DNA from: an uncultured virus (IMG/VR IMGVR_UViG_3300028805_000102)
Lineage: Duplodnaviria > Heunggongvirae > Uroviricota > Caudoviricetes
Reading direction: 5' to 3' (one strand)
IMG/VR virus record: IMGVR_UViG_3300028805_000102
DNA length: 64,000 bases
The notes beneath the pieces were generated by a model that was not told the origin of the DNA, searched no databases, and saw only the letters and a program-made list of their open reading frames with translations. This document shows, piece by piece, positions 15,228-37,042 of the stretch. How positions within the stretch are numbered: the first letter of the stretch is position 1; every line of letters starts with the position of its first letter. Position numbers and translations under genes: made by a program.

Positions 15228-16460
15228 ATGTTAAAAGGAATCCAAATACGATTATACCCAAATGATGAGCAAATGCATTATATTGCTTGTCTTCTTGGAT
15301 GCTGCCGTAAAACGTACAACATGTGTTTGAATTATAAAAAGACTTCTTATGAAAAAGATAAAACAAATATTTCATGGATTGATTTAGGTAAATATCTAAC
15401 TGAAAAGAAAAATGAATTTGCTTACATGAAAGATGTTCATAGTAAAGTATTACAACAATCAATTATTGACCTTAATACCGCATTTAACAACTTTTTCAGA
15501 GGAATTTTGAAAGGACAAAACATAGGTTATCCTGAATTTAAATCAAAATCTAATCATAATGATTCATGTAGATTTCCAAAAGATGCTTTTATCGGAATTA
15601 ACGGTAATAGAATTTCATTAATCAAACCATTATCAAATATTCATTTTAAATGTTCAAGAAGGGACGAATCCTGGCTTAATCACAATCAGGATAAAATAAA
15701 ATATGTTACTTTAAGAAGAAATAAAGCCAATCAAATATATTGTTCCATACTTGTTGATTATCCAATTGAATTGGTTTCTAATAATATAAACGGTGAAGTA
15801 GGAATCGATTTAGGTTTAAAAGATTTTTGTATAACATCAGATACTGAAAAATATAATTTAGATGATTGTTCTCATCTTGAAAAGAAGTTGAAGAAGCAAC
15901 AAAGAAAATTCTCAAAAACAGCAAACGGAAGTAAACGTCACGAAAAACAGCGAATACGAGTTGCTAAAACTTATCAGAAAATATCAAACAAAAGAAAATA
16001 TAATCATCAAGTAATATCTTCAAAACTTGTGAAAGAAAATTCAGTGATTTCAATAGAAGATTTAAATGTTTCAGGCATGCTTAAAAACCACAAGCTTGCA
16101 AAAAACATACAATCTAAAGGTTGGAGTCAATTTGTTAATATGCTTGAATACAAATCAAATTGGTATGGTTCAAATCTTGTAAAAATAAGTAGATGGTTTC
16201 CGTCAAGCAAGACCTGCTCTTCTTGCGGTTGGATTTATAAAGATTTAAATTTATCTATACGAGAATGGACATGCCCTTGTTGTGGAACACATCATGACAG
16301 AGACATCAATGCAGCAATTAACATTTTATCTGAAGGAAAAAGAATAATAGGCTTGAGTTCAGCCGAATTTACGCACGGGGAGTACCCAACTATGGATGAC
16401 CGTCACATTGACCTAAAAAGTAGTGGTACGTTGAATCGTGAACAGAATGTAAAACCATAA
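15228..16460 (+). CDS. tnpB: RNA-guided endonuclease TnpB
   Basis: RuvC GIDLG, IEDL and DRDINAA motifs; zinc ribbon CSSCG...CPCCG. Confidence 0.93.
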
Positions 16461-29406: not shown

Positions 29407-30477
29407 ATGAGAAAATTAGTAAGCGTAAGAACAATTGGAAGTACTTATCCAATTAAAGGTAAAGACAGAGTTGAAATGGCAGTCGTAGATGGTTGGACCT
29501 GTATGGTCAGTAAGGCCGATAATTTCAAACCTGGTGACTTATGTATCTTTTGTGAAACTGATTCTGTTTTTCCACAAACTGAAAAATGGGAATTTTTGAA
29601 AAAATACAATTACCGTATTAAGACACAGCGTTTCAAAGACGCCGATGGCAATTACATTTATTCACAGGGTCTGGTACTTCCAATGACAGATTTTCCAAAT
29701 GCAAAACTTGGTGATGACTTGACAAAAGAAATGAATGTCATACAATACGAAGCAACAATGGATATTGAATCAAAACCTAAAAAATTCAAAAATCCTTTGA
29801 TGAGATTTGCTTGGTTTAGAAAACTGTTCGGTAATGTACAAACTAAAGAATCATTTCCTGATGAGATAAGTAAAACAGATGAAGAACGTATCCAAAACTG
29901 TCCTGAAAGACCTTCACTTGCAGAAAAATGGATAATGACAGAAAAAGTTGATGGACAGTCAGGAACTTATTTACTTCGAAAACATAAATGGTTGTTCGGT
30001 ACAAAATATGAATTTGTTGTTTGTTCCCGTAATTTTAAAACAAATGACAAAAATACCTCATATTGGAAGTGTGCTGAAAAATACAACATTGAAAAGGCTT
30101 TGAAAAACCTTATCGGTAATCATAAATGGATTTGTCTGCAGGGTGAGTGTCTTGGTCCCGGTATTCAAGGTAACAAATATAAACTGCCTTGCTATACGTT
30201 AAGAGCTTTCAACTTAATTACTCCTGAAGGACGTATGGACAGTGTAACTGCTGAAACACTTGTAAAATCACAAGGTATTTTTTGGGTTCCAATGCTTGGT
30301 GAAATTTCAGGTGAACAACTAATGAAATTAGGAGTTGACGGTATATTAAAAGCAGCAAACGGACTTTCTAAATTAAATTCAGATACTAAGCGTGAAGGAA
30401 TTGTATTTAGAAGCAGTGACGGTAAAAAATCATTCAAAGCCGTAAGCCCTGAATTTTTAATCAAATTTGATGAATAA
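29407..30477 (+). CDS. ATP-dependent RNA ligase (DRB0094/Rnl5-like)
   Basis: N-terminal MRKLVS..GW..G..SQGL domain, KTDEERIQN, motif I TEKVDG, QGE, EGIV, SFK. Confidence 0.88.
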   Translation: MRKLVSVRTIGSTYPIKGKDRVEMAVVDGWTCMVSKADNFKPGDLCIFCETDSVFPQTEKWEFLKKYNYRIKTQRFKDADGNYIYSQGLVLPMTDFPNAKLGDDLTKEMNVIQYEATMDIESKPKKFKNPLMRFAWFRKLFGNVQTKESFPDEISKTDEERIQNCPERPSLAEKWIMTEKVDGQSGTYLLRKHKWLFGTKYEFVVCSRNFKTNDKNTSYWKCAEKYNIEKALKNLIGNHKWICLQGECLGPGIQGNKYKLPCYTLRAFNLITPEGRMDSVTAETLVKSQGIFWVPMLGEISGEQLMKLGVDGILKAANGLSKLNSDTKREGIVFRSSDGKKSFKAVSPEFLIKFDE

Positions 30478-31500
30478 AATATATTCATTGTTTTTTTATT
30501 ATAAACTTAAATTGATGAAACATATTCATTTAAAATATTTTTATAATGAAAAGACAGGAATTCCTAAATATCTGCTGGATTGTGCTAGCAGATATTTAGG
30601 AATTAATGAATTTGATTTTAAATTGTCAAGACATATTATAAATCATTGTAATAGCTTAAAAACAAATAGATTTTTCACACCTGAGTATTTAATAAATCAG
30701 GTAAATCACATAAGAACTAATAGAATAGCTCCAATTTCTATAGAAACAAATGATAACATAGTCGTTGGACAAGCTGTTTACAAAATGAATTTATCAAGTG
30801 AAAAATCTTTATATCTTGTGATAGGAAATAAAATACTTATAACATCTTATATAAAATAGTCCTATGAATTTTAATGATGCAAAATTATTTGTTGATGAAA
30901 CCATAAAAGAAGGCGAGTCAACACTGTATAAAGTCGTTTCAGACTTTAAGGTAGAAGAATTAAAGTTTGACAAAGATTCTATAAAGCTAATCTTTTCAAA
31001 TGATAGCGTAACTATCAATGAGCATAATATTGATGTACTTTATAAGTATAAACAGCAGGCTTTAAGGCATATAGCAAATAGATGTAAAATTTTCTTAGTC
31101 CAACATGATTTTTTAGCTTTGAAAAATGCGGACATCATAAAAATATAAATAAATAGTTCGTTTAATTTTATAACTATGAAAAATATCATTTTATCTGACA
31201 TATCTGAATTGATAAAAATTGCAAAAGAAGCATTTGAAGAATTGCAAGTTCGTGATTTCAACGGCAATATTACTGTTGAATATCTTGAAAAGATGTTTAC
31301 AGACATAAGAAATAAAGAACTTACAGGCGAAAAAATGCAGGCTTCTGGATATAATGATATTATTGTAATGCATTATATGTTAAGAGCAAAAGGTGTCAAT
31401 TTCTATTTTCAACGTCATGAACTTCAAGTAGATAACATGGATGATTGGAAAGAGTTTGTAAAAACTTACATAAGGCACTATACAAGACTTTTGTAAAATT

Positions 31501-31545
31501 TTTGATCCAACTTTAAAATTTTTACATTATTTTTACGTCATCAAA
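31501..31545 (+). promoter_or_regulatory. class-1 promoter motif at the head of the RNA island
   Basis: TTTGATCCAACTTT...TATTTTTAC; followed by a class-2 motif at 31564. Confidence 0.65.
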
Positions 31546-31608
31546 CAATTTTTATAAATTCTGTTGTTTATTATATACAAACAAGCTTATAAAGTACATT
31601 GAAATATT

Positions 31609-31695
31609 AAGGAACTACAAGTTAACATCATACCAAAGATGTTGAGTGGAATCGGAAACAGGTGGTGCTGTCGGTAACAGAAAAAGTAATTCCTT
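31609..31695 (+). ncRNA. unknown structured RNA
   Basis: Closing stem AAGGAACTAC/GTAATTCCTT (9 of 10 pairs); hairpins TTAACATC/GATGTTGA and CTGT/ACAG. Confidence 0.45.
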
Positions 31696-31701
31696 TTTAA
31701 A

Positions 31702-31815
31702 ATTGCGTTATGTAGGAATGGCTGACCAACATTCCACAAATTGCTGGGCGTGGAAGTGTGTGAATAATCCAGAAGAACAACACACAATGATTGGTACGAA
31801 TTCCTCTGACGCAAT
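31702..31815 (+). ncRNA. unknown structured RNA, multi-way junction
   Basis: Stems ATTGCGTTA/TGACGCAAT, AGGAAT/ATTCCT, TTCCAC/GTGGAA and TGTGTG/CACACA. Confidence 0.55.
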
Positions 31816-31826
31816 AAATTTAATCT

Positions 31827-31900
31827 GGGCCGGGTAGTGTAATTGGCTAGCACGTCACATTTGCACTGTGACAGAGGGGTTCAAGTCCCACCTGTGTCCA
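31827..31900 (+). tRNA. tRNA-Ala(TGC)
   Basis: TCACA-TTTGCAC-TGTGA anticodon arm; G3:U70; the acceptor stem appears to carry a bulge. Confidence 0.75.
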
Positions 31901-31932
31901 CTAAAAAAGAGTACATTGAAATAGTTATAATT

Positions 31933-32111
31933 TAAAGATTCTGAGGTGGAGCAGGTTTTTCCTCTAAAGCATTCGAGGATAGAGGGTTGGAAGTAATAAC
32001 TGCGTGGACGTGTCCTTTACGCTCGACTTACTCGCGTGAAACTAAGAGTATGGGGACCAAAGGTCGGCTACAACAGGGCGAATACTGTCGAGGGCTGTAT
32101 AGGAATCTTTA
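31933..32111 (+). ncRNA. unknown ~180-nt structured RNA
   Basis: Terminal stem TAAAGATTC/GAATCTTTA enclosing hairpins CCTCTA/TAGAGG, TACTC/GAGTA and others; GC-rich, no ORF. Confidence 0.5.
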
Positions 32112-32118
32112 ATTTTTG

Positions 32119-32465
32119 GGGGGTGTATGGTTTTGACTGCAGATTAGTGGTATGAGATACATGTGGTGATTGAACGGCTCACCTAAAACAACGGTCGAAA
32201 AATAAAGGTAAAAAACACTTTCAGCAAAGTAAGCAACAAGGTTGTAGACTTCGCAAACAGAGTAGCAGACATCAGAATTGCTCCAGTAGTAATGAGAATG
32301 GCTGCTTAATAGCCTTTAAGATTTCCGTGTTAGATTAAATACGGTGGTGGAGCTGCGAGAGCAGAGGTTTTGGAACAGAACCTTAATCTGTTATCCTAAA
32401 CATGTAAATAATATCTTGTATTGACGGTTTGTAGGACCGGAGTTCGAATCTCCGCACCTCCACGA
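32119..32465 (+). ncRNA. ssrA: tmRNA
   Basis: 5' GGGGGTG...GGTTTTGAC; 3' GGACCGGAGTTCGAATCTCCGCACCTCCA with G3:U70; tag frame 32208-32309 ends in MAA*. Confidence 0.92.
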
Positions 32466-32468
32466 TTA

Positions 32469-32543
32469 ACGCTTGTCGTCTAATGGTTAAGACATAGGGT
32501 CTAAAATAAAGCCTTAGATTCGGGTTCGAGTCCCGACTTGACA
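32469..32543 (+). pseudogene. tRNA-like element with unpaired acceptor and enlarged anticodon loop
   Basis: D arm and T arm like tRNA-Glu; TAGGGT-CTAAAATAAA-GCCTTA anticodon arm; acceptor strands not complementary. Confidence 0.6.
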
Positions 32544-32628
32544 TCATTGCACCTAACATATATGTCAAAGCGTTGTCATCATACTTATCACTTGCGGCAT
32601 GCGTGAGGATTCCGTGTGCCGCCCTCCT

Positions 32629-32697
32629 GCCACGGTCGTCTAATGGTTAGGATCTGAATGCGCAATCAAGAACCAGGTTCGATTCCTGGCTGTAGTA
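32629..32697 (+). pseudogene. tRNA-like element (Glu scaffold) with degenerate anticodon arm
   Basis: GCCACGG/CTGTAGT acceptor; D arm nearly identical to tRNA-Glu; intact T arm. Confidence 0.6.
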
Positions 32698-32702
32698 CTA
32701 AT

Positions 32703-32836
32703 GTCCATGTTGATGGACTTTCTATTGCATAAGTGTACATAGTTCAATAGAAAGGTGCTGGTAAGCTTTATCATCTGTTTTTGTCAATATTCATGATACA
32801 TTGACAAATAATGAGGTTCGATTCCTTACGTGGACT
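32703..32836 (+). ncRNA. tRNA-like RNA with greatly extended D and variable arms
   Basis: GTCCATG/CGTGGAC acceptor; TGAGG-TTCGATT-CCTTA T arm; 10-bp and 9-bp internal hairpins. Confidence 0.6.
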
Positions 32837-32840
32837 CAAA

Positions 32841-32917
32841 GACTTATATAGGCAAATAGGCGAAGTCGTCAGGAAGAAATTCCTGAAGGTACTGGTTCGA
32901 AACCGGTTATAAGTCCA
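32841..32917 (+). ncRNA. tRNA-like RNA whose anticodon arm is capped by a GAAA tetraloop
   Basis: GACTTATA/TATAAGTC acceptor; TCAGGAA-GAAA-TTCCTGA; intact T arm. Confidence 0.65.
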
Positions 32918-33037
32918 ATAGTAATGAACTGAGTCAGAAAAGTAAAGCGCTTAATATGTCGACTAAAAGCGTGAGTAACGAAGTAGGACCAAGGACGTGA
33001 GTAGCTACGCAGGTAAGCATCTTCAGGCGTCCATTCT

Positions 33038-33109
33038 GCCCCGGTCGTCTAATGGTTAGGACGTGAGGTTTTCATCCTCAAAATTCGGGTTCGATTCCCG
33101 GCTGGGGTA
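33038..33109 (+). tRNA. tRNA-Glu(TTC)
   Basis: Cloverleaf; TGAGG-TTTTCAT-CCTCA. Confidence 0.92.
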
Positions 33110-33152
33110 CAAAATGATTTATTTTAGTTCTTTGACATATTGGAAATATTTT

Positions 33153-33234
33153 GGACCTGTGGTGGAATTGGTAGGCACGCCAGACTTAGGATCTGGTGCA
33201 GAAATGCGTGAGAGTTCAAGTCTCTCCTGGTCCA
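33153..33234 (+). tRNA. tRNA-Leu(TAG)
   Basis: CCAGA-CTTAGGA-TCTGG; long variable arm. Confidence 0.92.
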
Positions 33235-33486
33235 CAAAGAAAAATCGCAGGTGCAGTTCGAGTCTGCATGGTTGTGAAACGGTGCACCATATCACATATT
33301 CAGGTGTACAACTAATATGTGTATGAAGTAGCAACCATAGGTGTATGGGTAGCATGGCGAAAATTTAAGTGGTGATAGACGATCAATAAGATGACATGAG
33401 AACGGTTGATGCGGTTAGGCTACAAATTACCGGTAGTATCTGGTCTCATTGGAAGGTGACGAATCGGTATTCCTTCTGCCACTTTT

Positions 33487-33561
33487 GGGCCTTTAGCTCA
33501 ATTTGGTTAGAGCTTCCGTCTGATACGCGGAAGGTTCTTGGTTCAAGTCCAGGGAGGCCCA
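33487..33561 (+). tRNA. tRNA-Ile(GAT)
   Basis: TCCGT-CTGATAC-GCGGA. Confidence 0.92.
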
Positions 33562-33668
33562 CAAATGATTTCCAAGTTAGATTAAACTTGGTGGTGCAGG
33601 AAGCATCAGCCAACACAGGTGATGTAAAAAAATATGTGGATGCGCCTACTGCTAAGTGAGGATTTTTA

Positions 33669-33744
33669 GGGCCTGTAGCTCAGTATAGGTTAGAGCAACT
33701 GACTCATAATCAGGAGGTCACTGGTTCAAGCCCAGTCTGGCCCA
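33669..33744 (+). tRNA. tRNA(CAT), Ile2 (lysidine)-type or elongator Met
   Basis: GGGCCTG acceptor; CTGA-CTCATAA-TCAG. Confidence 0.85.
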
Positions 33745-34010
33745 CAATACCAAATTGCGTTGTGGTTATAAACAAACGCTGGCATAGACGAAACTTGCCA
33801 ATGTAACTATGTAGGTAGCTTCTGGAACGAGTGGTGATCGTAAACAGAGACAAGTTCATCATAAACTCGTAGTGAATAGTACAAAAGTTAGACGTAGGTG
33901 CGGAACGATTCTTTTCAGAAAATGCTAAGATTGAAAGACTTACCAGGTCAGTTGTTCTCTTTTAACCGCCCAGAACAAATAAAATGAAGAACATACGATG
34001 TTAGCTTTAT

Positions 34011-34091
34011 AGCGGAGTGTCAGTAGATGGTAGCTGGAAAGTCTCATAAACTTTTGCGAAAGCCTCGGAGGTTCGAGTCCTCCCTCCGCAA
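34011..34091 (+). tRNA. tRNA(CAT), initiator-like with a long variable arm
   Basis: A1:A72 mismatch; AAAGT-CTCATAA-ACTTT; variable hairpin GC-GAAA-GC. Confidence 0.75.
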
Positions 34092-34203
34092 CTACGAAAC
34101 ACGCTTGGTACCCTGCGTCCGGGGCTGGACGAGCCAAGTAATGAACAGGTAAGTCTCCACCTGAAGTAATTAGTGAGGTGATAAATGAGTAAAGGGAGGC
34201 GAT

Positions 34204-34319
34204 GGACTTGTCGTCTAATGGATAAGACACGGGGAATAGTCAAGACACGTGGTCTAATAAAGACACGAGGTCTAGTCTAAACTATAACCTTGGATTCAGG
34301 TTCGAGTCCTGCAAGTCCA
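34204..34319 (+). ncRNA. tRNA-like RNA with internal repeats/insertion in the anticodon region
   Basis: Perfect GGACTTG/CAAGTCC acceptor, D and T arms present; three AAGACACG copies inside. Confidence 0.6.
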
Positions 34320-34382
34320 CAAAAGTAATGGAGATCTTGAAGGATGGTACTCCACGTTAAATACTAAAAGACCTCCTATCAA

Positions 34383-34467
34383 GGCCGAATGGTGGAATGG
34401 TAGACACGTGAGACTTAAAATCTCAGGAACAGAAATGTTCGTGCAAGTTCGATTCTTGTTTTGGCCA
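34383..34467 (+). tRNA. tRNA-Leu(TAA)
   Basis: TGAGA-CTTAAAA-TCTCA; long variable arm. Confidence 0.92.
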
Positions 34468-34592
34468 CGTGAAATGGTGTAGTGTATGCTTTCCACCATT
34501 GGTCCTACGGGCAGATGGCTGGGGGTTCCTCATTATGCACCAACCTTTGAAGAGGTACCACTTCTGAAAGGAGGACAAAAGGAACCAAATTT

Positions 34593-34679
34593 GGAGAAAT
34601 AACCCTAACCTGGTAAGGGAACTGTTTGCTAAACAGTCAGTAGCCGAAAGGTGTGCAGGTTCAAATCCTGCTTTCTCCG
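34593..34679 (+). tRNA. tRNA-Ser(GCT)
   Basis: ACTGT-TTGCTAA-ACAGT; long variable arm; G73. Confidence 0.92.
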
Positions 34680-34904
34680 CAAATTACATCGTTGTAGTTT
34701 CTTCTACAACAGAGTACATTACTTATTAAGTCACAATATGTACATTCATCTTCAAAAATGTGCGAAGGTTTTGATTGTTCATCAATCTAAGTTGCTTCTA
34801 CAATAGACTGTTAAGAAGATGTGTGAGGGATTCTACAAAAAATCCCCGTTAAGTTTGGACAGCAGCTGATCAGGTCCTGACAAAGTGAGGTCGAAAAACT
34901 TTCT

Positions 34905-34978
34905 GGTGGCATAGCTCAGTTGGATAGAGCAACAGCCTTCTAAGCTGTGGGTCGGGAGTTCGAACCTCTCTGTCATCA
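34905..34978 (+). tRNA. tRNA-Arg(TCT)
   Basis: ACAGC-CTTCTAA-GCTGT. Confidence 0.92.
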
Positions 34979-35023
34979 CAACATTTTGAAAAAATTTCAA
35001 AAAAATGAAAATTTTTTATAGAA

Positions 35024-35057
35024 TTTGATACAACTTTAAAATATTATACTATATTTG
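35024..35057 (+). promoter_or_regulatory. promoter of the second tRNA operon (Bacteroidota-type TTTG ... TAnnTTTG)
   Basis: TTTG at 35024-27 and TATATTTG at 35050-57; member of the class-1 motif family. Confidence 0.75.
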
Positions 35058-35079
35058 CTATACATAAATGAACAAAACG

Positions 35080-35151
35080 ATGTTAGTAGTTTTTACACAT
35101 AAGACACAAAATAATTACCAACCCAAAGATTGGTCGGATATTTGTATCTAG
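35080..35151 (+). CDS. leader peptide MLVVFTHKTQNNYQPKDWSDICI of a putative tRNA-operon attenuator
   Basis: Short ORF just after the promoter (alternative in-frame ATG at 35068); codons mirror the downstream tRNA set; overlaps antiterminator strands. Confidence 0.75.
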   Translation: MLVVFTHKTQNNYQPKDWSDICI

Positions 35152-35180
35152 TGTCGGAGTGTATTAAAATATAAAAACCT

Positions 35181-35221
35181 AAAATCCCTCTCCGACAATC
35201 TTGGTGAGGGATTTTTATTTT
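35181..35221 (+). terminator. intrinsic terminator (attenuator) immediately before tRNA-Asn
   Basis: AAAATCCCTC-TCCGA-caatc-TTGGT-GAGGGATTTTTATTTT hairpin with a U-tract. Confidence 0.8.
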
Positions 35222-35295
35222 GGTGACATAGCTCAGTTGGTTAGAGCATCTGACTGTTAATCAGAGGGTCGAAGGTTCGAAGCCTTCTGTCACCG
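35222..35295 (+). tRNA. tRNA-Asn(GTT)
   Basis: TCTGA-CTGTTAA-TCAGA. Confidence 0.93.
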
Positions 35296-35300
35296 CAAAA

Positions 35301-35376
35301 CTAGGTATAGAGGAGCTAGGTTTATCTCGCCTGTCTTGGACTCAGGAGCACGCTGGTTCGAATCCAGCTACCTAGA
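35301..35376 (+). tRNA. tRNA-Pro(TGG)
   Basis: C1:G72, A73; loop CTTGGAC (A37 rather than the usual G37). Confidence 0.85.
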
Positions 35377-35383
35377 CAAATTT

Positions 35384-35471
35384 GGAAGTGTGTTCGAATT
35401 GGTAAGGAATCAGTCTTGAAAACTGACGGGTACATAAAATGGCCTTGTGGGTTCGAGTCCCTCCACTTCCG
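35384..35471 (+). tRNA. tRNA-Ser(TGA)
   Basis: TCAGT-CTTGAAA-ACTGA; long variable arm. Confidence 0.92.
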
Positions 35472-35476
35472 CTGAT

Positions 35477-35549
35477 TGTCCTTTCATACAATGGTTTAGT
35501 ATACCAGAATTTGGATCTGGTCATCTTGGTTCGAATCCAGGAAGGACAA
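35477..35549 (+). tRNA. tRNA-Gln(TTG)
   Basis: U1:A72; CCAGA-ATTTGGA-TCTGG. Confidence 0.88.
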
Positions 35550-35556
35550 CAAAATT

Positions 35557-35645
35557 GGGAGAGCGGTTACGATGGTGGAGTAACGCTGGACTGTAAATCC
35601 AGTACATTTAAAGAAACGTAGTAGGTTCGAATCCTACCTCTCCCA
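35557..35645 (+). tRNA. tRNA-Tyr(GTA)
   Basis: CTGGA-CTGTAAA-TCCAG; long variable arm. Confidence 0.92.
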
Positions 35646-35650
35646 CACAT

Positions 35651-35724
35651 GGTGTTAGTAGTTCAGTTGGTAGAACGCTGGTTTGTGGAGCCAGTAGTCA
35701 TTGGTTCGAATCCAATCTAACACA
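35651..35724 (+). tRNA. tRNA-His(GTG)
   Basis: G-1; CTGGT-TTGTGGA-GCCAG. Confidence 0.9.
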
Positions 35725-35733
35725 CAAAATAAA

Positions 35734-35851
35734 CTAGGTATAGAGAAATTGGTAAACTCACCCTGTATTGGAACAGGGAACACAAGGAATAGTTACTAGT
35801 GGAATACTTGTGGACAGTAATGTCTTGTTGGTTCGAGCCCAGCTACCTAGA
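35734..35851 (+). tRNA. aberrant tRNA-Pro-like RNA with 8-nt anticodon loop and ~45-nt variable insert
   Basis: Same CTAGGTA/TACCTAG acceptor as 35301; CCCTG-TATTGGAA-CAGGG; hairpins CACAAG/CTTGTG and GACA-GTAA-TGTC. Confidence 0.65.
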
Positions 35852-35856
35852 CTAAT

Positions 35857-35933
35857 GATTTCGTAGCTAAGTTGGTCTTTAGAGCATGACACTTTTAATG
35901 TCGGTGTCGAGAGTTCGAATCCAATCTGACACA
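35857..35933 (+). pseudogene. chimeric tRNA-Lys(TTT) with a His-type 3' end
   Basis: TGACA-CTTTTAA-TGTCG arm intact; the 3' part TTCGAATCCAATCTGACACACAAA nearly copies tRNA-His, so the T and acceptor stems do not pair. Confidence 0.75.
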
Positions 35934-35938
35934 CAAAT

Positions 35939-36012
35939 GCCTCTTTAGCTCAATTGGTGAGAGCAGCTGATTTGTAATCAGCAGGTTGTAGGTTCGAGTC
36001 CTACAAGAGGCT
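35939..36012 (+). tRNA. tRNA-Thr(TGT)
   Basis: GCTGA-TTTGTAA-TCAGC. Confidence 0.93.
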
Positions 36013-36017
36013 CATAT

Positions 36018-36091
36018 AGTGCTGTAGCTCAGTTGGTTAGAGTAATGGCCTGTCACGCCATGGGTCGCGGGTTCGAGTCCCGTCAGCACTG
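36018..36091 (+). tRNA. tRNA-Asp(GTC)
   Basis: ATGGC-CTGTCAC-GCCAT; G73. Confidence 0.93.
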
Positions 36092-36146
36092 CACCTTTTA
36101 TTATATCAGTCGAGAAATCGGCAAAAATCCAAAAATTTTTCAAAAT

Positions 36147-36190
36147 TTTGATCCAACTTATAAAAAGTTGTATTATATTTACCTCAACAA
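36147..36190 (+). promoter_or_regulatory. class-1 promoter motif
   Basis: TTTGATCCAACTTAT...TATATTTACCTCAACAAA. Confidence 0.75.
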
Positions 36191-36219
36191 ATTATTATTA
36201 ACATTTAAAATTAAATAAT

Positions 36220-36600
36220 ATGTATAAAGTTAATCCAATTGATTCTCAAAAAGGAGAATTCTACTATTGTTTCAAAATAACAGACAAAGTAGTGTTTCAA
36301 GTCAAAAATTACACAATAGGCAGTAACAAAGAAAATTATTTTGCTACTGAAGCCTGTTTATTTAATAATGATAAAACAGATTATAATGAATGTGGTCAAT
36401 GTCAAGAAAGACTATTACCTAAAGATTCATTAGCTTATAAATTTTACAAGAAGTGGGATTATAAGCAGACATTGCATTTATCCGATACTGAATTACAAAA
36501 TGTTAAAGAAGACGTTGAAAAATTGAAACAAGCGTATCCATATGTTGAAAGTATGACAACAGATTTATCTTTCGGAAAAGTAAAACAATTAGTTAAATAA
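36220..36600 (+). CDS. hypothetical protein
   Basis: 126-aa ORF (CGQCQ motif) after a class-1 promoter. Confidence 0.7.
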   Translation: MYKVNPIDSQKGEFYYCFKITDKVVFQVKNYTIGSNKENYFATEACLFNNDKTDYNECGQCQERLLPKDSLAYKFYKKWDYKQTLHLSDTELQNVKEDVEKLKQAYPYVESMTTDLSFGKVKQLVK

Positions 36601-36628
36601 ATAAATTAGTAAAATTATTTTAAGTAAA

Positions 36629-37042
36629 ATGACAAAATCAAAAGCTCTAAAAATTATTAAGAATCTACTTGATTCTGATGAAGACATGGAAACATTTGTA
36701 TTATTCAAATTTTATGATAAATACAAATATGATTTAGATGAAATCAAATCCCGGTCTGAAAAATCCAATCAAAATTTTTTCATATCTGACGAAAAATATA
36801 TTACATATCATTTCATATTGTCAGATTTGTACAAATTAATTCAGGAACAAGATAATCTCGGTATTAAAATTCTTGACGGACGAAATTGCATATTGGATGA
36901 AAATTCTGAACTAAAAGATATGACGGTTGAAGATGTGGTTCGTCAATGCTTGAAAAACCTGTCATTCTTTAAGTCACAAATTCCAATACCTGTAGAAGTG
37001 ACTTCATCAAAAGAATTATTCAATAATTATTCTCAAAAATGA
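36629..37042 (+). CDS. hypothetical protein, probable paralog of 63218 (MTKSKALK N-terminus)
   Basis: Shared N-terminus and C-terminal IP..V.S..EL. Confidence 0.7.
   Translation: MTKSKALKIIKNLLDSDEDMETFVLFKFYDKYKYDLDEIKSRSEKSNQNFFISDEKYITYHFILSDLYKLIQEQDNLGIKILDGRNCILDENSELKDMTVEDVVRQCLKNLSFFKSQIPIPVEVTSSKELFNNYSQK

Follow-up and report, generated by a model that had tools for sequence, protein, structure and literature searches.

A putative leader-peptide attenuator in front of an eight-gene tRNA operon of an uncultured phage

Enterobacterial leader-peptide attenuators include trpL, hisL and pheL, as well as multivalent examples: the thr leader senses Thr and Ile, and the ilvGMEDA leader senses Leu, Val and Ile. 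Here, we describe an element of similar design that lies directly upstream of tRNA genes in an uncultured rumen phage, IMG/VR record IMGVR_UViG_3300028805_000102. The window, i.e. the whole stretch of 64,000 nucleotides (nt) that was analysed, comprises bases 151-64150 of this virus record, which is 123,839 bases long and has an estimated completeness of approximately 49%. From its sequence, we consider it likely that the element is a ribosome-sensed (leader-peptide) transcription attenuator, which gates a phage operon of eight tRNA genes and provides feedback on tRNA supply. The kind of regulation, ribosome-mediated attenuation, is known, and its application to tRNA genes is probably new.

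Like the enterobacterial attenuators, the phage module combines a promoter, a short open reading frame (ORF) with putative regulatory codons, a stop codon tens of nt before an intrinsic terminator, and a predicted alternative pairing that involves the 3' region of the ORF. It differs from them in that tRNA genes rather than biosynthetic enzymes would be regulated, and the sensor would therefore read the product class itself. Furthermore, whereas enterobacterial leaders contain runs of 1-3 amino acids, the phage leaders hold up to 7-9 amino acids, each once or twice. Sensing of charged-tRNA shortage by conditional termination of genes for translation supply is a feature that the phage module would share with pheST and other aminoacyl-tRNA-synthetase attenuators and with T-boxes. 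T-boxes work without an ORF, by direct binding of uncharged tRNA, and pheST senses one amino acid; to our knowledge, none of these systems controls tRNA genes. A cmscan search of positions 31000-37000 at E <= 1 gave no match to a T-box or to an Rfam leader family (Trp_leader, His_leader, Thr_leader, Leu_leader and similar), and yielded only tRNA, transfer-messenger RNA (tmRNA) and chance matches.

Translation stress is sensed by another group of ribosome-stalling upstream ORFs, including the erm and cat leaders and that of whiB7. The leader of vmlR is reported to be an attenuator of the same sort (PMC9226507). In these systems, as would be the case in the phage, a short ORF probes ribosome speed and is coupled to the choice between terminator and antiterminator. 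They respond to ribosomes that a drug has stalled in a specific peptide or codon context, whereas the vocabulary of the phage leaders tracks the downstream tRNA set. In Bacteroidetes, there is the Bacteroid-trp motif (RF01692), which we take to be a Trp leader-peptide attenuator. It suggests that leader-type attenuation is in use in the phylum to which the promoter type of the phage belongs, although the motif precedes a host amino-acid operon, has a different sequence and gives no Rfam match at the phage leader. One study lists it as a candidate cis-regulatory RNA of Bacteroidetes (PMC2864571), and a term look-up in a survey of premature terminators gave neither tRNA genes nor phage (PMC2965389). 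The preliminary description of the locus knew of no phage tRNA operon controlled in this way; likewise, full-text searches of main articles returned, in the text available, no account of tRNA genes under the control of a leader peptide.

The sequence at 35024-35221 was found to be exactly as the preliminary description had it, with a promoter, a 23-codon ORF at 35080-35151 and an intrinsic terminator at 35181-35221 (Table 1). The promoter belongs to a promoter-like family with 10 near-identical copies in the 123.8-kb record, six of which lie in the window (16727, 31501, 35024, 36147, 58076 and 62783) and four beyond it. The ORF starts 22 nt past the -7 box, or 10 nt past it if translation begins at an in-frame ATG at 35068, which gives a longer form of 27 amino acids in the ORF list (35068-35151). 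The terminator hairpin has an outer stem of 10 base pairs (bp; 35181-35190 with 35206-35215) and an inner stem of 4 bp; it was omitted by a simple consensus terminator scan, whose rule admits only loops of 3-8 nt. Because the ORF, the terminator and the T-tract abut tRNA-Asn (35222), there is no space for another promoter, and since the T-tract runs right up to tRNA-Asn and a further promoter copy follows only at 36147, the operon is transcribable only through the terminator. The record has 18 tRNA genes and a tmRNA, all of which lie in two adjacent clusters at 31829-36092. Of the ten tRNA genes originally proposed for the attenuated unit, eight are intact in ARAGORN and Rfam searches (Asn, Pro, Ser-TGA, Gln, Tyr, His, Thr and Asp, between 35222 and 36092), while the "Pro-like" and "broken Lys" genes are both degenerate and were detected by neither program at default settings. 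The Pro-like gene (35734..35852) has an acceptor and T arm in common with tRNA-Pro. The sole contig from an RNA library at this place is 151 nt long (34968-35118, depth 2.5), and as a contig alone it does not allow strand or ends to be read.

In the mechanism that we propose, transcription would start at the promoter (35024-35057), and a ribosome would translate the 23-codon leader, whose core codons 6-20 would mostly be read by tRNAs encoded just downstream. When reading is fast, the ribosome would reach the 3' end of the ORF and its stop codon and cover both 35122-35139 and 35144-35152, whereupon the hairpin at 35181-35215 would form and transcription would end at the T-tract (35216-35221), one base before tRNA-Asn. 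When any core codon is read slowly, its tRNA being scarce, uncharged or damaged, the ribosome would stall upstream and leave the 3' segment of the ORF free to pair with the loop and top of the terminator. The hairpin could then not close, and RNA polymerase would proceed into the tRNA genes. Because the operon's own tRNAs decode the leader, such a circuit would constitute a self-limiting negative feedback on tRNA supply. Candidate causes of slow reading are phage demand in excess of host supply, host tRNA decay in infection, and cleavage by anticodon nucleases.

The codon content of the core is the first line of evidence for this proposal. A recount of 35095-35139 confirmed that 14 of the 15 codons belong to the set of nine amino acids named in the preliminary description and that all nine are represented. 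Without Lys, i.e. for the eight intact tRNAs, the count is 12 of 15, and 11 of 15 codons are cognate to intact tRNAs by standard wobble. Among 111,470 stop-free 15-codon windows, taken from six frames of the whole record, at least 14 of 15 codons from the nine-amino-acid set were found in 11, and all nine amino acids occurred in a single window, the leader itself. Similarly, only one of the 1,121 short ATG ORFs in the record contained at least 14 of 15 such codons together with all nine amino acids. Omission of Lys left 235 windows that reach 12 of 15, three of them with all eight amino acids, and at the codon level 87 windows reach 11 of 15 cognate codons. Dinucleotide shuffles of 35062-35180 produced an ATG ORF with a window of at least 14 of 15 in 9 of 20,000 cases, and none of the 20,000 contained all nine amino acids. 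These results show that the composition of the 15-codon core is exceptional within the genome. It had also been pointed out that the leader lacks Ala, Glu and Arg codons, the tRNAs for which lie in the upstream cluster. This is correct, but Met, Leu and Ile codons are present in the leader, and their tRNAs are likewise in the upstream cluster.

Further evidence came from other phages. The preliminary description had called for a comparison of leader codon content with tRNA content in homologous operons; the expected covariation was observed in ten modules, which are analogous rather than homologous. Modules were found through matches to a conserved tRNA-Pro end and to tRNA-Asn, followed by a scan for terminators just upstream of tRNAs, and the leader of each was taken as the first ATG ORF past the promoter that ends before the terminator. 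In addition to the window's own, there are nine such combinations of short ORF, terminator and tRNA block in four other phage records, and each leader has a different amino-acid vocabulary (Table 1). The records are a 1.5-kb contig (L029) whose tRNA-Pro is 87% identical to that of the window; a 152-kb IMG/VR record with 52 tRNA hits (G006); LR745206.1, a 635-kb uncultured phage in GenBank; and LR756500.1. The four leaders of G006 are paralogous and have one promoter and 5' untranslated region (5' UTR) in common, with different cores in front of four different tRNA blocks. Across the class, an ORF of 16-38 codons with a matching vocabulary stops 19-42 nt before a strong hairpin and T-run, which are followed by a tRNA block on the same strand. 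The window's module fits this description with its 23 codons, a gap of 29 nt, a hairpin of -17.5 kcal/mol and its own tRNA set ranked first of ten.

For the statistics, the ten ORFs were used whole, with no window picking, and every leader was scored against all ten tRNA sets over an empirical background of 52,308 residues. The leader's own tRNA set ranked first for eight of the ten leaders; it ranked third for the leader designated H2 and second for the long form of leader J. None of 200,000 random assignments of leaders to sets matched the observed total, and in an earlier 6x6 version, 1 of 720 permutations did so. The match was specific to the reading frame: 125 of 252 codons were in the set in the ORF frame, versus 53 and 52 of 252 when the frame was shifted by one or two bases. 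Standard wobble lets 118 of these 125 codons pair with the anticodons that are present, and 21 of 26 Ser, Arg and Leu codons fall within the codon box of a tRNA that is present.

Pairing within the leaders is consistent with a switch. In each of the ten leaders, it is the 3' part of the ORF or the sequence just past the stop codon that best complements the terminator 5' arm plus loop; the numbers of shuffles per 1000 that did as well were, by leader, 4, 28, 58, 103, 7, 107, 0, 43, 23 and 111 (Fisher p = 4e-8). In the window, the best complement is strand 2a, which is predicted to form a duplex of approximately 15 bp with two bulges (-17.0 kcal/mol); in two sets of dinucleotide shuffles, an equally good duplex arose in 1 of 2000 and in 0 of 1000 cases. 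A second strand, 2b, is a direct repeat of GTCGGA over the stop codon, and its pairing was present in all partial-transcript folds unless the ribosome covered 2b. Thus, the predicted switch geometry in the window is non-canonical, with pairing to the terminator loop and top rather than to the 5' arm as in classical attenuators, although modules C and H1 of the same class do have a classical antiterminator to the 5' arm. A 15-bp duplex over the whole loop may hold the arms apart and prevent nucleation of the hairpin. The multi-tRNA attenuator of the preliminary description is supported by the frame-specific covariation over ten modules; its weaker parts are the antiterminator of the window, which is predicted to pair elsewhere than at the 5' arm, and anticodon nucleases as a possible trigger.

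The effect of ribosome position was evaluated by folding with ribosome masks, a check that the preliminary description had also named. In equilibrium folds, a 30-nt mask was placed along the leader, and the terminator had a probability of 0.994 at every position. Equilibrium folding was rejected as a test of the switch: it likewise keeps the terminator in the proven trpL attenuator of E. coli, and because this positive control fails equally, the outcome is uninformative. A kinetic proxy was used as well, in which the masked transcript is folded up to the terminator loop and the 5' half of the terminator is inspected for upstream pairing. With E. coli trpL, the 5' arm was paired at approximately 0.95 only when the ribosome was on codons 10-12, which is the known switch. 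Six of the ten phage leaders (C, D, F, H2, H3 and J) behaved in the proxy like trpL, where the position of the ribosome decides termination, and switched clearly upon stalling; leader H1 switched partly, over its sensing codons. For the window's leader, loop pairing in the proxy was 0.77-0.91 with the ribosome on codons 5-10 and fell to 0.01-0.30 on codons 21-23. The folding check was therefore flat at equilibrium and position-dependent in the proxy, with the reservation, given below, that pairing also occurs when no ribosome is present. The barrier for refolding from the pre-formed alternative to the terminator was 13-16 kcal/mol here versus approximately 6 for trpL, in a nested model that forbids pseudoknots.

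Several observations weigh against a ribosome-sensed attenuator at this locus. Over the whole ORF, the enrichment is weak (12 of 22 codons, binomial tail 0.088), and so is frame specificity for the window's leader alone (12 of 22 versus 6 of 22 and, in frame +2, 11 of 22), while the 15-codon length of the core and the inclusion of Lys were chosen post hoc. Two core codons are for Lys, the sole candidate gene for which is degenerate, one is for Trp, for which there is no tRNA, and the CCC codon requires extended wobble. Because each amino acid occurs only once or twice in the leader, its sensitivity to mild shortage would be low. The G+C-rich 5' arm of the terminator has no upstream complement, as 569 of 1000 shuffles pair with it equally well; loop pairing in the proxy was also 0.55 without a ribosome and 0.59 with a ribosome on the stop codon; the 8-bp helix of 2b and the lower stem of the terminator could form together, as a pseudoknot; and leaders A and B gave no clear switch. 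The tRNA clusters L024, L025, L026, L028, L007, L008 and L015 contain no such module, and the device is therefore common but not universal. Finally, no homologues of the leader were found in GenBank phages, IMG/VR or the metagenome collection, and the strain contigs from sheep and goat gut are too close for a conservation test of the ORF.

We weighed these points in relation to three other explanations. The terminator might be leaky or constitutive and the ORF meaningless, with the hairpin damping or insulating transcription from the upstream tRNA/tmRNA cluster and the promoter at 35024; the operon would then receive a fixed fraction of read-through, and the composition of the ORF would be coincidental. 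The invariant equilibrium probability of the terminator (0.994 wherever the ribosome sits) would fit such an element, as would the missing complement to the 5' arm, the weak whole-ORF enrichment and the post hoc choice of the core. However, the equilibrium result is the same for the proven trpL attenuator and so carries no information, only 1 of 111,470 windows, and none of 20,000 local shuffles, has a composition like that of the core, the loop complement is equalled by 0-1 shuffles per 1000-2000, and in nine other modules of the same layout the vocabulary tracks the module's own tRNA set in the ORF frame only. We therefore regard a leaky terminator as improbable.

A switch that is independent of translation, in which the leader RNA is bound by a phage or host protein, binds tRNA directly in the manner of a T-box, or acts as a processive antitermination RNA, would also make the ORF incidental. 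The leader folds better than its shuffles (z = -2.6; 2 of 200 as good), the UGGU in the terminator loop could in principle pair with the 3' NCCA end of tRNA, and the alternative pairing in the proxy needs no ribosome. Yet the region 31000-37000 contains no Rfam T-box, riboswitch or leader family at E <= 1, and the match to the tRNA set is confined to one reading frame (0.50 versus 0.21 and 0.21) and extends to the Ser, Arg and Leu codon boxes (21 of 26), whereas a sensor made of RNA only would have no reason to respect a frame or a box; we think this explanation very improbable. Still harder to credit is that the ORF encodes a small protein of importance in itself, with its own promoter and terminator, and that the tRNA genes are reached by simple read-through. 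The hydrophobic N-terminus (MLVVF) and polar tail of the peptide would suit a small protein, and the frame is kept open in near-identical strains over the parts covered. Against this, apart from short N-termini that are shared within one genome, the ten peptides have no sequence in common and differ exactly where the tRNA sets differ, and a peptide with a Gln run in front of three tRNA-Gln genes is the signature of a codon sensor. Thus, a ribosome-sensed attenuator appears to be the likely explanation for the element.

Table 1. Features of the putative attenuated tRNA unit of the window, followed by leaders of analogous modules in other phage records
Feature	Position	Strand	Basis or match	tRNA genes downstream
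Promoter, Bacteroidota type: TTTG at 35024 (-33), TATATTTG at 35050-35057 (-7)	35024..35057	+	one of 10 family copies	
Leader ORF, 23 codons + TAG, MLVVFTHKTQNNYQPKDWSDICI*	35080..35151	+	ORF reading	
Putative sensing core, codons 6-20 (THKTQNNYQPKDWSD)	35095..35139	+	codon match to downstream tRNAs	
Candidate antiterminator strand 2a (codons 15-20), complements terminator loop and inner stem 35191-35205	35122..35139	+	predicted pairing	
Second copy, 2b, GTCGGA direct repeat over stop codon, pairs with 35189-35196 (8 bp)	35144..35152	+	predicted pairing	
Terminator hairpin: 5' arm 35181-35190, loop and inner stem 35191-35205, 3' arm 35206-35215	35181..35215	+	folding, -17.5 kcal/mol	
T-tract (TTTTTATTTT), final base directly before tRNA-Asn	35212..35221	+	sequence	
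tRNA-Asn (GTT)	35222..35296	+	ARAGORN and Rfam	
tRNA-Pro (TGG)	35301..35377	+	ARAGORN and Rfam	
tRNA-Ser (TGA)	35384..35472	+	ARAGORN and Rfam	
tRNA-Gln (TTG)	35477..35550	+	ARAGORN and Rfam	
tRNA-Tyr (GTA)	35557..35646	+	ARAGORN; best Rfam model is long-arm tRNA-Sec, under that model's cut-off	
tRNA-His (GTG)	35652..35725	+	ARAGORN and Rfam	
Pro-like tRNA, ~40-nt insertion, degenerate or intron-bearing	35734..35852	+	relaxed ARAGORN: intron-bearing tRNA	
Lys-like (TTT) tRNA remnant, T arm broken	35855..35930	+	by eye; undetected even by relaxed ARAGORN	
tRNA-Thr (TGT)	35939..36013	+	ARAGORN and Rfam	
tRNA-Asp (GTC), final gene of the unit	36018..36092	+	ARAGORN and Rfam	
Next canonical promoter copy, downstream limit of the putative attenuated unit	36147..36181	+	promoter family	
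L029 leader MKSIRVQRPLQHHIFQDTGL				Pro, Gln, His, Arg-ACG, Leu-TAG (abutted by terminator)
G006 leader MRNFTTTYKGKQYPQGTKPSALRLSYLVF (part MRNFTTTYKGKQYPQGTKP)			15/15 core codons in set	Pro x3, Gln x2, Tyr, Gly x3, Lys x2, Thr x2
G006 leader MRNFNDIFEFNFAAFAEEDDCI				Phe x2, Glu x2, Asp x3
G006 leader MFTTITILVLCLLSSVVLLRQESYDVIYCKA (part ILVLCLLSSVVLL)				Cys, Val x3, Leu x4
G006 leader MMSIHISSINWRRNVTMVSNCLDFTKTGI (part MMSIHISSINWRRN)				His, Ser-GCT, His, Arg, Met x4, Asn, Arg x2
LR745206.1 leader MTTMNLNMTMNLTLNVVNITLCNIR...			29/37 in set	19 tRNAs for Asn, Arg, Leu, Val, Ile, Thr, Met
LR745206.1 leader ...APVNPQPQDQDP... (part PVNPQPQDQDP)				Pro, Asp x4, Pro
LR745206.1 leader MTTTQQIQQQQINQTD				three tRNA-Gln genes (abutting)
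LR756500.1 leader MINLVNIIDNRRDDNNIIQSSWA (part MINLVNIIDNRRDDNN)				Asn, Asp, Arg-TCT, Met

The searches for homologues covered several parts of the locus. By blastn against GenBank phages, matches were obtained to tRNA parts only and not to the leader, and the exact terminator pattern had 0 matches in IMG/VR. No relatives of the neighbouring proteins (a 126-residue ORF, DNA polymerase and helicase) were found in IMG/VR, and the RNA ligase was found there at 13 loci, of which 0 are syntenic and 0 have a tRNA cluster. Searches with tRNA-Pro patterns returned analogous modules only, with no homologous leaders, and a generic scan for the promoter motif gave 18 loci outside G006, all of them ordinary promoters with tRNAs downstream in none, which serve as negative examples. 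Near-identical DNA is present in sheep and goat gut assemblies; the strain differences listed are few, and among them are 35143 T>C (Cys to Arg), a 7-nt insertion after 35164 and 35079 G>A.

The other members of the promoter family fall into different settings. The canonical copies (16727, 36147, 58076, 62783 and the four outside the window) are followed by a conserved 5' UTR of approximately 35 nt (cctcaacaaattaa...attaaac) and then by the start codon of protein genes, which suggests a common translation or timing signal for one gene class. The two copies that precede tRNA clusters (31501 and 35024) lack this conserved 5' UTR. Behind the copy at 31501, the region 31501-31828 in front of the upstream cluster contains a 12-codon ORF (31640-31678, MLSGIGNRWCCR) within a compound hairpin with GGAAU/AUUCC as its closing stem and TTTTT after it. 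The upstream cluster has tRNAs that match several codons of this ORF (Met, Leu, Ser, Ile and Arg). The ORF may be a second, less clear leader, whose terminator is ill-defined.

Recoding of TAG as a means to bypass the stop of the leader was also considered and was ruled out: TAG ends 29 of 155 ORFs of at least 100 amino acids, and the phage has no suppressor tRNA. The TAG of the leader is thus a true stop in this phage. In the G006 leader that precedes Phe, Glu and Asp tRNAs, the stop is also TAG, and the candidate antiterminator strand lies just behind it. Elsewhere, tRNAs with the anticodon CTA (labelled "Pyl" by ARAGORN) occur in L032 at 1836-1984 (G006) and in L058 at 584; they resemble amber suppressors, a hint of TAG recoding in the G006 and L058 phages.

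Two arrangements near tRNA genes in other records deserve mention. LR745206.1 has a putative internal attenuator (L057 39315-39434), directly after tRNA-Pro and with no promoter of its own, in which a 16-codon ORF with 7 Gln codons precedes a terminator abutting three tRNA-Gln genes; it is the cleanest single-amino-acid case. On an unrelated contig, L026, a hairpin of 14 bp (loop, 20 nt) and a short T-run (2470-2518) lie directly before tRNA-Asn, with no matching leader ORF evident.

In the neighbourhood of the tRNA clusters, an RNA ligase gene (29407-30477; PF09414 and the PHA02142 OB-fold domain; phrog_968) lies approximately 1 kb upstream of the tRNA/tmRNA region. Its nearest relative (L003, 75% identity) has no adjoining tRNA cluster. 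With regard to what might slow the ribosome, the neighbouring ligase is only circumstantial. The tmRNA is at 32119-32463 (Rfam, 90.8 bits), and its tag peptide according to ARAGORN is VKNTFSKVSNKVVDFANRVADIRIAPVVMRMAA. The long, G+C-richer spacers of the upstream cluster contain weak or odd tRNA-like elements at 32475-32537, 32629-32697, 32842-32916 and 34196-34330, among them two Rfam tRNA matches at 27-32 bits, one "tRNA-???" with a four-base anticodon (gaaa) and one tRNA-like stretch with an internal insertion. Farther upstream, a 410-residue ORF (15228-16460) resembles transposase family phrog_506 (E = 6e-113), i.e. an insertion-sequence-like gene within the phage.

The role of phage tRNAs is a long-running question, with three answers under discussion: a match to codon usage, the upkeep of translation while host tRNAs decay, and evasion of anticodon nucleases. 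Only tentatively, and as a rather unlikely extension of the attenuator, we suggest that large phages might carry a modular alarm, in which each tRNA block has its own codon-resolved ribosome sensor, diversified by paralogous duplication, and which would induce exactly those tRNAs that are cleaved or depleted in the host. The cause might lie in anticodon nucleases, in other defences directed against tRNAs or in degradation of the host by the phage itself, and tRNA arrays would then be an inducible counter-defence rather than a constitutive aid to codon usage. The leaders are approximately 150 nt long and portable, and the modules form a parts list of amino-acid- or tRNA-specific reporters of ribosome speed, such as the Gln-only and Phe/Glu/Asp leaders. 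If the attenuator reading is true, this would be the first attenuator whose output is the class of molecule that it measures, and some phages would regulate their tRNA supply by demand, block by block.

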